Source of the DNA: Laetmonice hystrix | Lineage: Eukaryota | Length of the DNA: 64,000 nucleotides | Reading direction: 5' to 3' | Assembly: GCA_965235115.1 (NCBI GenBank) | Contig: OZ249436.1 | Span: 2,854,001-2,918,000, forward strand | Shown here: in pieces, positions 9,746 through 62,586 of the stretch | Numbering within the stretch: position 1 is the stretch's first letter | Layout of the letters: the number at the start of each line of letters is the position of its first letter | Translations under genes and position numbers: made by a program | The notes under the pieces: generated by a model | Database searches by the model: none | Told to the model about the DNA's origin: nothing | Seen by the model: only the letters and a program-made list of their open reading frames with translations

Positions 9746-11590
9746 AAATAAAAGACACGCCGCCCACTTTGCCTGCTGGTGAAGGAGGGGTAGCTTTTGG
9801 CTGGCGACCCATCACAGTCTGTTTGGTCGGATTGGCAAGACGACGTCCACAGTACCAGTGGAGTAGATCTCCACGGTCGTCTGGTAAAGGGGCCATGACA
9901 TTCCTCCTTCAATACCGAACAGTAACAGGAATACGACTGCACTCATAACATCAGTATACGTGTGGCTATAAAACATGTCCCGTCGGGTTTTCCTGGAGTG
10001 TCAAAGGGAAGCATACATGGTCGGATGATTTTTGTATACATAGGCCTACTCGACATTTGCCAACTTTGAAATCTTCAGAAAGGCTCTGCCACTCTGTCCT
10101 TCGCGCGGACATAATGGTTAATTACTGGGTGTTTGTGACCTGAAGTCGTTAGTAAGAATAATTAATGAACTGCAGTCTTGGAATCAGTATGGTTTAATTA
10201 ATATGAAATGAAGTGTAGATTTTTAATTGATCATTGAGTGAAAGATATAGCATGGGGCAAGTTGTCCTCTGGACTGGCTATAGTCCTGTAATAAAACAAA
10301 TGCAGCATTTATTACTCGAATTAGAATATTAGAGCTTGAATAGGTTTTCATTCAGAAACATTTAAACTTATTAAATTGCACAAGGTTATGCCTTCCTAGG
10401 CCTACATTTAATCTTTGTCCCGTCGACTTGGACACCTGAGAGTTGACTTTGCCTACCCGTGACGGCTTGTATACCAGTTACTGTCAAGGTAGACCTGGCT
10501 TTTCTAGCAAGAGAAAATAAATGTTCACCAGCCAATGCTCATGGCCCTTGTGTCCTGTTATAGGTCTAGGCTGGGGGTGAACGCTGTCATAAGTGCATAA
10601 TTGGATCCCAATACCTCAAACTTGTCCTCAAATTGGTATCATTTGTATTTACGACCGGATCCTCTGGAATTCAGGTGTTTTCAAATAAAAGGAACGCTCC
10701 GTGGACACGGCGCGTTTCCTCTAATAACGTCACGTAATGACGGCACGACGGAACGGCTAGTAATGGTCGTGTTTGGTAACAAAGCTCGCCACGACACTGG
10801 CGGCACCTGGTGGTGGCAGTTCACGTCCGAGGGTCGTCTGTCAGGGTAGGGTTATCACGTCAGGATCCCATCCCGAGATCTCTAGCTGTTGTCGTGTCAT
10901 GATGTGATCTTCTCCACAATACAAAGTGTTCGACGACCCGCGCCGCTCTGACACTGAACGAACCGGGCACTGATACAAGGGGCGTTCAGTGATAAACAAC
11001 GTTACTAAACGTTACGGCGCTGGTGGTGCACAACGTCAGTTATGTCGTTCTGGCAGAAGTCCATCTGCACTGAGAAAATATGGTGAAACTAGAAAAGATC
11101 AACCAAACCTTACGAAACGTTACAGAATTTGACAACCTAAAATGCCAAACTTTTCCTAACGTTTTGTGATGCCACGTGCTGCTGAACTGTGCTCATGGAT
11201 CCAGGCCGGGGGAGGTGAGGGGAGGGCCGGGTAGGGGGTCCTCGACACTAGCACGCAAGGGGTTCCATGCTGAGGACGTAATGACCCACGTGCTTTAAAA
11301 AATAGCTAGTGATGAGGCAGAAACTTATTAGACCATACGACTGACCGCGCTGGGCAAAAGAAATGATTTGAGGTCTTCTTGAGTTGTTAACTTGTTTAAA
11401 CAAAGTTATTGAGAAAAACTAGCTGGATATGAGATTTATTCAACATGCAGAAAGTCCTCGGTGGTAGTGTAACTTTTTGTTTCGTCACACACGCTGTCAC
11501 TGAGTCATGTCCCCATTGAGGACTCTAACTTGCTGGAAAGGAATATTTTTGCCTTTGACGCAAATTGCTTTACAACTTCAAAAATACTAA

Positions 11591-12000
11591 AGGGTGGTTC
11601 AACATTTTCAACATTTTCACAAGCGTACAAACCGTACGCTAGGGGGGGGGGGGGTTAACACTCAATGTACGCTTTTTGAAAACTGAAAAATGTCGATCTG
11701 TAATGGATCAGTCAAGCAGCCCACGTACCACCTCTTCCCTTTGTGCGAATCACAGGGTGATGAATATACAAGATCTGCTCACCAGGGGCTTCATGGGGAT
11801 ATTTGTTTTGATGGACTTCCCTACATCACTGACCTATTCTTCGGTTAACTGTGGCCACAAGTAATGACCTAATCTCATCCTTGGTCATCCTATATATTGT
11901 AAAAAAAACATACATTTTCTTATGTACGCTTTTGGGAGGCGGGAGGGGGGTCATCAAAAAGAGTACTCTTTGTACGCTTGTGAAAATGTTGAACCACCCC
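11591..12000. mobile_element. PIF/Harbinger-type MITE, TAA target duplication
   Basis: TAA|AGGGTGGTTCAACATTTTCA...CAAGCGTACAAA ... TTTGTACGCTTGTGAAAATGTTGAACCACCCC|TAA. Confidence 0.75.
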
Positions 12001-12130
12001 TAAAGCAAAACAGTCAGGCTGCCTCAAAGTGTGACTTCAGGCATTTTAGCATATCCTGCATATTATAGTGTAAAATATGTTCCATACCTATGTTACACAT
12101 TAAATGAATGCCAACTTGTATTTTCAGAGA

Positions 12131-12197
12131 ATGCGGATCCCTCTAGCGGGAAGCCTACTTCTGACGGCTGTCATCTGGGCATGCGCAGACGCACAGG
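12131..12197 (+). CDS. Gene 1 exon: signal peptide [22 protein letters not shown]
   Basis: tttcag acceptor just upstream of the ATG (implies an upstream non-coding exon); hydrophobic core and ADA-Q cleavage pattern; CAGG|gtaagt donor, phase 1. Confidence 0.75.
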
Positions 12198-59644: not shown

Positions 59645-60378
59645 TTGGATAGGGAGTAATTAAGTAATTCTATGCTTCATAGGAAGTAAAAGTAACCCGT
59701 TATGGCCATTCTTGATACATGGTTACGAGTGTTATAAGCTAAATCCTTTGTATGAATGGGTGCATATCTTGGTAAAATGTAACACTGTAAAACAGTCATT
59801 AAGCTACTACTTTGGAATGTCTATCATACCAAATTTATTTACCTTTGGGTAGTCCTCCAAGATGGTACTAGTGAGAATTTGCCCCCCAAACTGGTACCGA
59901 TCGACCTATCTGGCTCATGGACTACTACCCAACCACCTGCACGACAATATTCAGTATTTTACATTTTGTCATTACATACCATACTTACGACCTCATCCTG
60001 TACACAAAGCCATGTGTAAGTTTTTACACGTGTTCTTTCTTACCGTTTACCCTTCTCCCATAAAACACTTCCAATCTTTAACTGCATTCTATGCCACGAA
60101 CACCGCCGATCTACGTCATAGGGATCGTATTTCTTAGTATTTCATATCAACATTCTGCCTTTCTGCATGATTCACGGATAAACATTATATAAATATAGCA
60201 TGGCAGTCAGTCCGATAAATCGTTCCCGGGCAGTCGATAATTAACGATCCCTATCTGGTGAATGAGTATCGTTACCAGGGCGACGATAAGGGGCAGCCAA
60301 TCACAGGCCCCGTTACATGTCACCCTGCCCGTGCCACCAATCAGGTGGCACCTACTAGACGTTGATACAGAGACCGCT

Positions 60379-60522
60379 TCACTCAAACACGATCTTGTAA
60401 ACATCTGTGTAGTGGTCGACGAAGTGGACCTCTAATCCCTCGGTTATGAAGTCCGGTAGATCTGAGTAGTCTTTCTTGTTCTCAGCCGGCAAGATGATAC
60501 AGTTCACACCCACACGCTTCGC
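60379..60522 (-). CDS. LONP1: Mitochondrial Lon protease, last coding exon ([47 protein letters not shown]); rest of gene lies beyond the window end
   Basis: Recognisable LONP1 C-terminus ([18 protein letters not shown]...[11 protein letters not shown]); ttgcag| acceptor, phase 0; minus-strand AATAAA at 59834-59839. Confidence 0.92.
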
Positions 60523-61920
60523 CTGCAACAGGTATTGGTACAATAGGTAAGACAGTTCACACCCACGCTTCGCCTGCAACAGGTATTGGTACACGAGGTA
60601 AGGCAGTTTACACCCACACTCTCCGCCTGCAACAGGTATTGGTACACTAGGTAAGGCAGTTCACACCCACACGCTTGGCCTGCAACAGGTATTGGTACAC
60701 TAGGTAAGGCAGTTCACACCCACACTCTCCGCCTGCAACAGGTATTGGTACACTAGGTAAGGCAGTTCACACCCACACTCTCCGCCTGCAACAGGTATTG
60801 GTACAATAGGTAAGACAGTTCACACCCACACGCTTCGCCTGCAACAGGTATTGGTACACTAGGTAAGGCAGTTCACAACCACACGCTTCGCCTGCAACAG
60901 GTATTGGTACACTAGGTAAGACAGTTCACACCCACACTCTCCGCCTGCAACAGGTATTGGTACACTAGGTAAGGCAGTTCACACCCACACTCTCCGCCTG
61001 CAACAGGTATTGGTACACTAGGTAAGGCAGTTCACACCCACACTCTCCGCCTGCAACAGGTATTGGTACACTAGGTAAGGCAGTTCACACCCACACTCTC
61101 CGCCTGCAACAGGTATTGGTACACTAGGTAAGGCAGTTCACACCCACACTCTCCGCCTGCAACAGGTATTGGTACACTAGGTAAGGCAGTTTACACCCAC
61201 ACTCTCCGCCTGCAACAGGTATTGGTACACTAGGTAAGGCAGTTTACACCCACACTCTCCGCCTGCAACAGGTATTGGTACACTAGGTAAGGCAGTTCAC
61301 ACCCACACTCTCCGCCTGCAACAGGTATTGGTACAATAGGTAAGACAGTTCACACCCACACGCTTCGCCTGCAACAGGTATTGGTACACTAGGTAAGGCA
61401 GTTCACACCCACACGCTTCGCCTGTAACAAGTATTGATACACTAGGTAAGGCAGTTCACACCCACACGCTTCGCCTGCAACAGGTATTGGTACACTAGGT
61501 AAGGCAGTTCACACCCACACGCCCCGCCTGCAACAAGTATTGGTACAATAGGTAAGGCAGTTCACACCCGCACTCTCCGCCTGCAACAGGTATTGGTACA
61601 CTAGGTAACCGTAAGGCAGCTCGCCTACAACAGGTATTGGTACACTAGGTAACCGTAAGGCAGCTCGCCTACAACAGGTATTGGTACACTAGGTAAGGCA
61701 GTTCACACCCACACTCTCCGCCTGCAACAGGTATTGGTACACTAGGTAAGACAGTTCACACCCACACTCTCCGCCTGCAACAGGTATTGGTACACTAGGT
61801 AAGACAGTTCACACCCACACGCTTCGCCTGCAACAGGTATTGGTACACTAGGTAAGGCAGTTCACACCCACACGCTTCGCCTGCAACAGGTATTGGTACA
61901 CTAGGTAAGGCAGTTCACAC
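60500..61920 (-). repeat. 53-bp minisatellite (~27 copies) spanning the 3' splice site of the last LONP1 exon
   Basis: Minus strand CCTTACCTAGTGTACCAATACCTGTTGCAG|GCGAAGCGTGTGGGTGTGAACTG. Confidence 0.97.
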
Positions 61921-62586
61921 AGGTAAATGTATAACCAACAGGTAATAGGCCTACCACAAGAGCAGGATTTCCTACAAGTGTTTGCCTTCGGGGGAAGCCA
62001 GGAAATTGGCAGGGGGGGGGGGGGGGTCGAGGGCATTTGGGGGAGCACATTTTGGTGCTTGCAGACATCATTTTTGGGGATATAGCCAATACTTTTTAGG
62101 GGAGACCCCCAAATAAGGCCCTTAGGAACCCCTGAACAGGTAGAAGTACAAGAGGAAGTAGTGTATGTCTCTCACTTCATATAATTCACCAGTCTGAGGT
62201 CAACGATCTCCAAGTAAACAACAAAAAAGGCTAGAGCTCCTTCCTTTCTATTGGGAATCCGGAACTTGCCACACCACAACCTAAAACCAGTTACCTACCG
62301 CAATAATGTCAAAGAGATAAACAACCCTGCATTTGTGAGAATCTAGTTTCCATGATGCGAGTATACATCAAACGCTGTATCATATGATATAATCTCAGAG
62401 ACGGTCGTGGGAAGGAACCGGACTCCCCTTTCCCATCATTCCAATCAGGGCCGCGCCTTGTTTGACCTGACTAACCTCGCATGTCGGGAGGACATTCGTC
62501 TCCCGGTAAAACTATGTCCGGTGATTTGTGTCAAGTCCGGTGAGACTGGTTTCCACAATATAGGAGTGCATGAAGTGGTGATACCT

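Follow-up and report, generated by a model that had tools for sequence, protein, structure and literature searches.

The 8-letter palindrome TAGGCCTA is dispersed through a 64,000-nt stretch of the Laetmonice hystrix genome (contig OZ249436.1), referred to here as the window, and almost certainly represents an insertion at a TA dinucleotide in which the TA has been duplicated. These insertions, called scars below, are very probably the footprint of some transposon family with GG ends. Their likely main source is the pogo clade of the IS630-Tc1-mariner group (DD35D, with G-run ends of the form TA-GGG(G)...(C)CCC-TA, where hyphens mark the element boundaries), which would leave a two-sided excision footprint. 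Coordinates are window positions unless a contig or locus is named. Pattern counts for the whole genome refer to 627 Mb, with the reversed word as control, and all other genome-wide statistics come from a sample of about 0.3 Mb.

The TAGGCCTA word and its insertion at TA

The window contains 20 exact copies of TAGGCCTA, against about 0.8 expected under order-1 and order-2 Markov models (40 against 1.55 with both strands counted). All 20 lie where a preliminary description of this DNA had placed them, and the 8-mer enrichment that it had proposed to check across the genome was recovered, with 168,757 copies against 3,469 of the reversed control. The density in the window (0.31/kb) is typical of that in the genome (0.27/kb), and the word is therefore a genome-wide trait and not a local one. 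In the k-mer sample, which consists of the window and 20 loci of 10 kb after masking of tandem repeats, TAGGCCTA ranks first among the non-homopolymer 8-mers (70 copies vs. 3.0 expected in 200,484 non-tandem bases), and 54 copies are present in a reduced sample of 188,137 bases from which one satellite locus and one duplicate had been removed. The strongest k-mer excess overall in the window and 20 loci belongs to poly-C/G runs (C8, 377 vs. 7). A satellite of about 865 bp (contig C1, 19565-90405, and the L018 locus) carries one TAGGCCTA per unit, which raises the genome count; as part of the copies has been multiplied within satellites and repeat families, they are not all independent events.

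Seven of the 18 non-tandem window sites lie at most 60 bp from another one, where 0.88 were expected (P=0.00025), so the hotspots noted in the preliminary description stand as clusters. Its further suggestion that they mark germline open chromatin is without support, because scar density showed no relation to the CpG observed/expected ratio (o/e), taken as a stand-in for open or unmethylated DNA (rho=0.02, p=0.67; 320 windows of 500 bp with 50 scars), and because the cluster at 46.5-48.0 kb is a pile of high-copy repeats. The avoidance of coding exons was borne out, with 0 of the 20 sites inside the 10 open reading frame (ORF) or exon intervals checked in the partly annotated window.

That the word arises by insertion is seen in 10 paired comparisons among tandem-array units and repeat copies, in each of which the motif, or a near variant of it, corresponds to an indel of 5-7 bases (mostly +6) at a pre-existing TA, in agreement with the TA-duplicating insertion proposed earlier. 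The two array insertions already described were found as such, with a single 44-bp unit among 38-bp units at 25523 (+6 at TA) and +6 at TA in one unit of a 55-bp array at 45717. The array at locus L015 has +6 at each of two different TAs and that at locus L014 has +7, while three copies of one miniature inverted-repeat transposable element (MITE) are distinguished at TA sites by indels of +7, +5 and +6. Contigs of paralogous repeat copies likewise hold +5 and +6 insertions at the window TAs 46773 and 46811. The direction of insertion is plain for the five array events and clear for two of the MITE events, and majority-based or presumed for the remaining comparisons. An unbiased scan of 107 arrays gave 55 insertion rows of at least 3 bases, among which 6 rows (4 events in 3 arrays) belong to the motif family, each at TA. 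Comparison of haplotypes, limited to the contigs of one sequenced sample, showed the 6-bp gap at 0 of 2 single-copy window sites (47961 and 48011) and is uninformative, with differences of about 1% there.

Nested and variant forms are present at the positions reported for them (Table 1). In the sample, the variants follow the pattern TA-G2-C(n)-TA, with GG constant on one side (G2C2 104, G2C3 10, G2C4 5 and G2C5 2, compared with 2, 4, 0 and 0 for the C-then-G control), and TAGGCTA occurs 29 times where 15 were expected. Neighbours of TAGGCCTA with one mismatch are in excess in 12 of 12 classes (95 vs. 50-58 expected, 50 at order 3); at about 0.7-0.8 for every exact copy, they imply a mean scar decay of about 9-10% per site. 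Such a decay trail points to neutral scars of mixed age and not to selected binding sites.

pogo elements with GG ends and rival sources

An element with GG...CC ends and a TA target had been postulated from the window alone, and GG-ended, TA-flanked elements do exist in the genome, so the postulate is not undone by their absence. Two weak DDE_3 matches turned out to be pogo transposases with DDE_1 (PF03184, E about 2e-21 and 2e-22), HTH_psq and DD35D, with the last two D of each protein separated by 35 residues. One belongs to a complete element at C10:3149013-3152496, with TA-GGG at both ends and a 655-amino-acid open frame encoding DDE_1, HTH_psq and DD35D; the second complete element, at C3:36308885-36312654, has TA-GGGG ends, and three more copies have nearly the same scores. 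As both were located from the protein side, their ends are not an artefact of the search pattern. Related transposase matches number 107, about 25 of them with stop-free frames of at least 590 amino acids, and relatives, carrying generic names alone, are present in molluscs, an annelid and arthropods. The end patterns gave 169 matches against 12 in the control and, for a second pattern, 333 against 78. Many of these ends are paired about 600 bp apart as MITEs, of the form TA-GGG(G)...(C)CCC-TA, and some adjoin transposase matches. The terminal G-run of the MITEs varies (40 ends, loci L042-L081: 4 G in 26, 3 in 8, 2 in 5 and 5 in 1), for which slippage or the repair of failed excisions are candidate readings.

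Scars crowd around these ends. Six exact scars lie in the 1,000 bp of flank around 20 paired MITEs, and an independent set of 20 further ends holds 8 in 2,000 bp, where 0.54 were expected (P=0.005 alone). Pooled, this amounts to 14 scars in 3 kb against 0.8 expected, with 2 in 3.7 kb of control flanks (P=0.0005); the controls comprise the flanks of a Harbinger MITE family (2 scars in 2,000 bp) and of nine TA elements without GG ends (0 in 1,738 bp). Six element ends, of at most 333, lie directly in the TA of a scar, compared with 1.4 expected (P=0.003). Next to the TA, scars and element sites alike are rich in C and poor in A, with p=0.20 for the comparison of flank spectra between scars and the first MITE set.

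The link between elements and scars is circumstantial, and several observations weigh against pogo as the main source. The pooled flank spectra differ (p=0.046; C at 32 of 60 element flanks, C at 62 and T at 59 of 166 scar flanks), and the greater share of T beside scars hints at a mixture of source families or an incomplete match. One-sided footprints, the usual product of Sleeping Beauty, which retains one overhang (PMC7827188), are not enriched in the sample (TAGGTA 61 vs. 71.1 and TAGGGTA 9 vs. 19.0 expected), and C. elegans germ cells yield highly varied Tc1 footprints (PMC4490562). No locus both occupied and scarred was found in the contigs of the one sample, and there is no pogo element within the window. 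Both ends were obtained at only 2 of the 4 pogo loci examined, the right end of the element at locus L038 and the end of that at C3:12.70 Mb not being found in the stretches examined, and the MITE-end pattern demands TAGG, so that the TA flanks are partly given by construction. The common neighbourhoods could also reflect TA sites that are generally accessible, given that a Sailor MITE adjoins a scar variant at 57352. Lastly, there are about 1,000 scars per surviving element. This ratio is not paradoxical: if we assume 150 elements, a mutation rate of 5e-9 and that 75% of the copies are independent, each element has to leave about 5e-5 footprints in each generation.

Other GG-ended, TA-flanked transposons, such as PIF/Harbinger elements with TA-GGCC(C) ends or their relatives, are an unlikely main source of the scars. 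Elements with TA-GGCC or TA-GGGCC ends do exist here, namely a family of 734-bp MITEs, for which 100 ends match with no more than 2 mismatches, and a 7.4-kb partner that carries DDE_Tnp_4 and Myb genes. A first look gave 484 Harbinger candidates, one family of which had its ends examined. Overhangs of GGC or GGCC would be self-complementary and could be rejoined neatly to TAGGCCTA, which would explain why the two-sided product alone is seen. However, the target of this family, CAW-TA-WTG, is the context of only 79 of the 168,757 scars, fewer than the approximately 108 expected from scar flanks; thus the family is rejected as the main source, fitting at most 79 sites. Its flanks hold 2 scars in 2,000 bp, and Harbinger excision of the mPing type is often precise (PMC4423477). 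The partner element (L031, C4:34269762-34277135) has DDE_Tnp_4 and Myb/SANT between its terminal inverted repeats (TIRs), the Myb match being below the curated cut-off (E=0.00027). Like PIF/Harbinger elements in the accessible parts of PMC4482050, PMC9179366 and 10.64898/2026.05.26.728016, it has the two-gene DDE_Tnp_4 and Myb layout and GG ends, but its flanking bases look like a TA duplication of 2 bp instead of the TWA, ANT, CWG or AT described in PMC4482050. A 3-bp Harbinger duplication (TWA or ANT) was not seen, as the W beside the TA agrees on both sides in only 7 of the 12 copies with TA at both ends.

Somewhat less likely again is a repair process of the host that has nothing to do with the ends of the elements and would add G's at both ends of a TA-staggered break through a terminal-transferase-like or Pol theta/mu activity, or after a cut by a domesticated or abortive transposase, with pogo elements merely using the same accessible sites. 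The lack of one-sided footprints, the very uniform product and the great excess of scars over elements are in its favour, and the extra-C variants are compatible with untemplated G addition. Nevertheless, it needs an exact TA-duplicating cut, which is the integration signature of the IS630-Tc1-mariner group, one side is nearly always exactly GG, the scars gather around GG-ended elements and not around the nine non-GG TA elements, and a parallel word made of CA and TG is also enriched (see below). Telomerase has little to recommend it as the origin, although TAGG lies within the telomere repeat and the scar is TAGG followed by its own reverse complement: TA break ends would be extended and two extended ends fused head to head as a micro interstitial telomere. 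This reading is disfavoured, as a TTAGGG telomere such as the one present here predicts GGG additions, while TAGGGCCCTA has a count of 0 and the G3C3 form is missing from the spectrum in the sample, by which it is largely refuted; nor are longer telomeric extensions prominent among the enriched 9- and 10-mers. Equally improbable is a protein-binding palindrome under selection. The word is palindromic, non-coding and clustered, and TACATGTA has been interpreted in this way in Phytophthora, where it seemed too abundant for a footprint (PMC3520976); however, single-step insertion within tandem arrays and MITEs, the decay trail in all 12 mismatch classes and the missing link with CpG o/e are at odds with it. 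Some scar sites may have been co-opted secondarily.

Among the other candidates, Tc1 and Sailor elements were rejected as a source after 7 of 57 DDE_3 rows had been examined (three with TA-CAG or TA-TAC ends, two for which no ends were found and the two pogo elements). A TA-GGCCG candidate in locus L013 was attributed to chance (30 matches vs. 10 in the control, no family). The Sailor-like elements (L034, L036) have a common 490-amino-acid open frame in five places, suggesting recent activity. For the Harbinger family (L015:306-1043 and L031), with its palindromic CAW-TA-WTG target, an alternative reading is that of no duplication and TAGG ends; the L031 element holds 11 exact copies of TAGGCCTA in 7.7 kb, with dense nested scars and G-rich variants at L031:6870-6950, and about 23 Harbinger-type transposase frames stand in tandem at C12:27.56-27.93 Mb with a spacing of about 13 kb.

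Sites and other features of the window

The scars, their variants and the tandem arrays of the window are listed in Table 1.

Table 1. Scar sites, variants and associated arrays in the window.
Feature	Position	Strand	Remark
Exact TAGGCCTA scar	10041..10048	.	exact match
Exact scar	10397..10404	.	exact match
38-bp tandem array	25387..25966	+	unit at 25498 holds +6; sister units show empty TA
Scar within 38-bp array	25523..25530	.	polarised insertion
Exact scar, cluster 1	31389..31396	.	exact match
Nested double scar (31521 and 31527)	31521..31534	.	exact match
7-mer variant nested with exact scar at 31596	31591..31603	.	word match
Exact scar	32311..32318	.	exact match
TAGGCTA variant	32728..32734	.	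word match
Exact scar	36576..36583	.	exact match
TAGGCCCTA variant nested with TAGGCTA	36653..36666	.	word match
Exact scar, synaptotagmin-like gene intron	41762..41769	.	exact match
TAGCCTA variant	41914..41920	.	word match
Exact scar	42663..42670	.	exact match
55-bp tandem array	45552..45887	+	one unit with +6 insertion
Scar within 55-bp array	45717..45724	.	polarised insertion
Three exact scars (46636, 46677, 46688)	46636..46695	.	within high-copy repeat
Two empty TA sites (46773, 46811)	46773..46812	.	paralogous contigs hold +5, +6 motif-family insertions
TAGCCTA variant	46817..46823	.	word match
Exact scar	47413..47420	.	exact match
Exact scar	47961..47968	.	no 6-bp gap in one sample's contigs
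Exact scar	48011..48018	.	no 6-bp gap in one sample's contigs
TAGCCTA variant	49106..49112	.	word match
Exact scar	52605..52612	.	exact match
TAGGCTA variant	57158..57164	.	word match
Two TAGGCCCTA variants (57304, 57352)	57304..57360	.	57352 adjoins Sailor-type MITE end
Exact scar	61946..61953	.	exact match

The gene content of the window includes a synaptotagmin-like gene, EGF exons, a long interspersed nuclear element (LINE) fragment and a Lon exon. The synaptotagmin-like gene has two C2 domains (40571-41485, approximately 45888-46010 and 48205-48512), and the 55-bp array repeats an acceptor-like sequence directly before its C2B exon, which starts near 45888. Words at 31220-31233 and 31785-31799 resemble CTCF sites and lie on either side of scar cluster 1; the stretch is rich in CpG. 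A 3.0-kb element at 56886-59924 is bounded by a perfect terminal inverted repeat of 20 bp, has subterminal repeats and encloses a broken LINE reverse-transcriptase fragment. At 46488-46598 there is a 111-bp MITE of very high depth with GG...CC ends between two CAG triplets, which resembles CWG-duplicating elements of the Harbinger type (NuwaI).

Proposed formation of the footprint and comparison with known systems

In the proposed course of events, a TA site becomes TA-GG-CC-TA with a net gain of 6 bases, as seen in the arrays, and GG-ended elements flanked by TA, autonomous copies and MITEs alike, reside in the scar neighbourhoods. By analogy with Tc1 chemistry, a cut 2 nt inside each end would leave TA-GG 3' overhangs on both flanks; germline repair would then retain both non-complementary overhangs, and polymerase fill-in across the break would give GG followed by CC, at times with an extra G/C. 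Synthesis across an unpaired break is within the reach of Pol mu-type polymerases. A few hundred element ends with an ordinary hopping rate could, over tens of millions of generations, produce 250-290 thousand scars, with hops that would often be local or into old scars and with scars that would then decay neutrally.

The word TACATGTA, the Tc1 footprint that the preliminary description had also recorded in the window, bears on this repair. It is enriched in non-tandem sequence of the sample (16 vs. 4.4 expected), although 27 of its 31 window copies are tandem-array copies, and TACAGTA is barely raised (34 vs. 28). As CA-ended Tc1 elements occur in the genome, this pattern points to a repair habit of the host. 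Taking both words together, we tentatively suggest that the germline of this lineage may repair the excision breaks of IS630-Tc1-mariner elements almost only by retaining both non-complementary overhangs, and that one transposon clade may thereby have written the most over-represented complex 8-mer of the genome (about 1 Mb) and left a map of insertion sites that can be dated. Abundant palindromes of the form TA-xx-yy-TA elsewhere among eukaryotes, TACATGTA in Phytophthora included, might be explained in the same way. If this is true, the scars are a genome-wide, datable record of the positions of cut-and-paste elements, vanished ones included, and reveal how an invertebrate germline joins broken ends; they also call for caution in motif searches, since over-represented palindromes can be transposon scars.

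Excision footprints are already known, usually as rare and varied events at single loci. The novelty here lies in the scale, in the uniformity of the two-sided product and in a candidate source that can be named. No description of TAGGCCTA as a genomic scar was found in the literature covered, which excludes subscription journals, Repbase and the supplement of PMC7386202. Among pogo families, the elements resemble Fot/Fot-like (Gao et al. 2020, PMC7386202) in domains and flanks and may belong there: like that family, in which HTH_psq occurs with or without HTH_Tnp_Tc5, they combine DDE_1 DD35D and HTH_psq with flanks within the TA/TAA/TAAA set (here TA) and a length within 1.2-5.2 kb. They differ in their animal host and in a TIR of about 26 bp, whereas the Fot-like hosts named in the accessible part of that paper are fungi, protists and algae, and the TIRs are mostly 40-60 bp. 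With Sleeping Beauty (PMC7827188) and Passer (PMC9976928), the latter a pogo-family element with 0-4 bp footprints and a AAGTACTT target (C after TA), they have in common the IS630-Tc1-mariner group, the TA duplication and a footprint made of overhang bases from the element ends; the data for those two come from cell culture, while the scars here are a natural germline record. The closest likeness is with C. elegans Tc1, the excision of which leaves non-complementary 2-nt 3' overhangs (PMC4490562) and for which taCATGta is a known, rare footprint (PMC3520976, citing Eide and Anderson 1988). Both footprints have a duplicated TA and two terminal bases from each element end, with a net gain of 6 bases; however, that of Tc1 is rare within a varied germline spectrum, whereas here one product, GG followed by CC, dominates with about 169,000 copies, or about 1 Mb.

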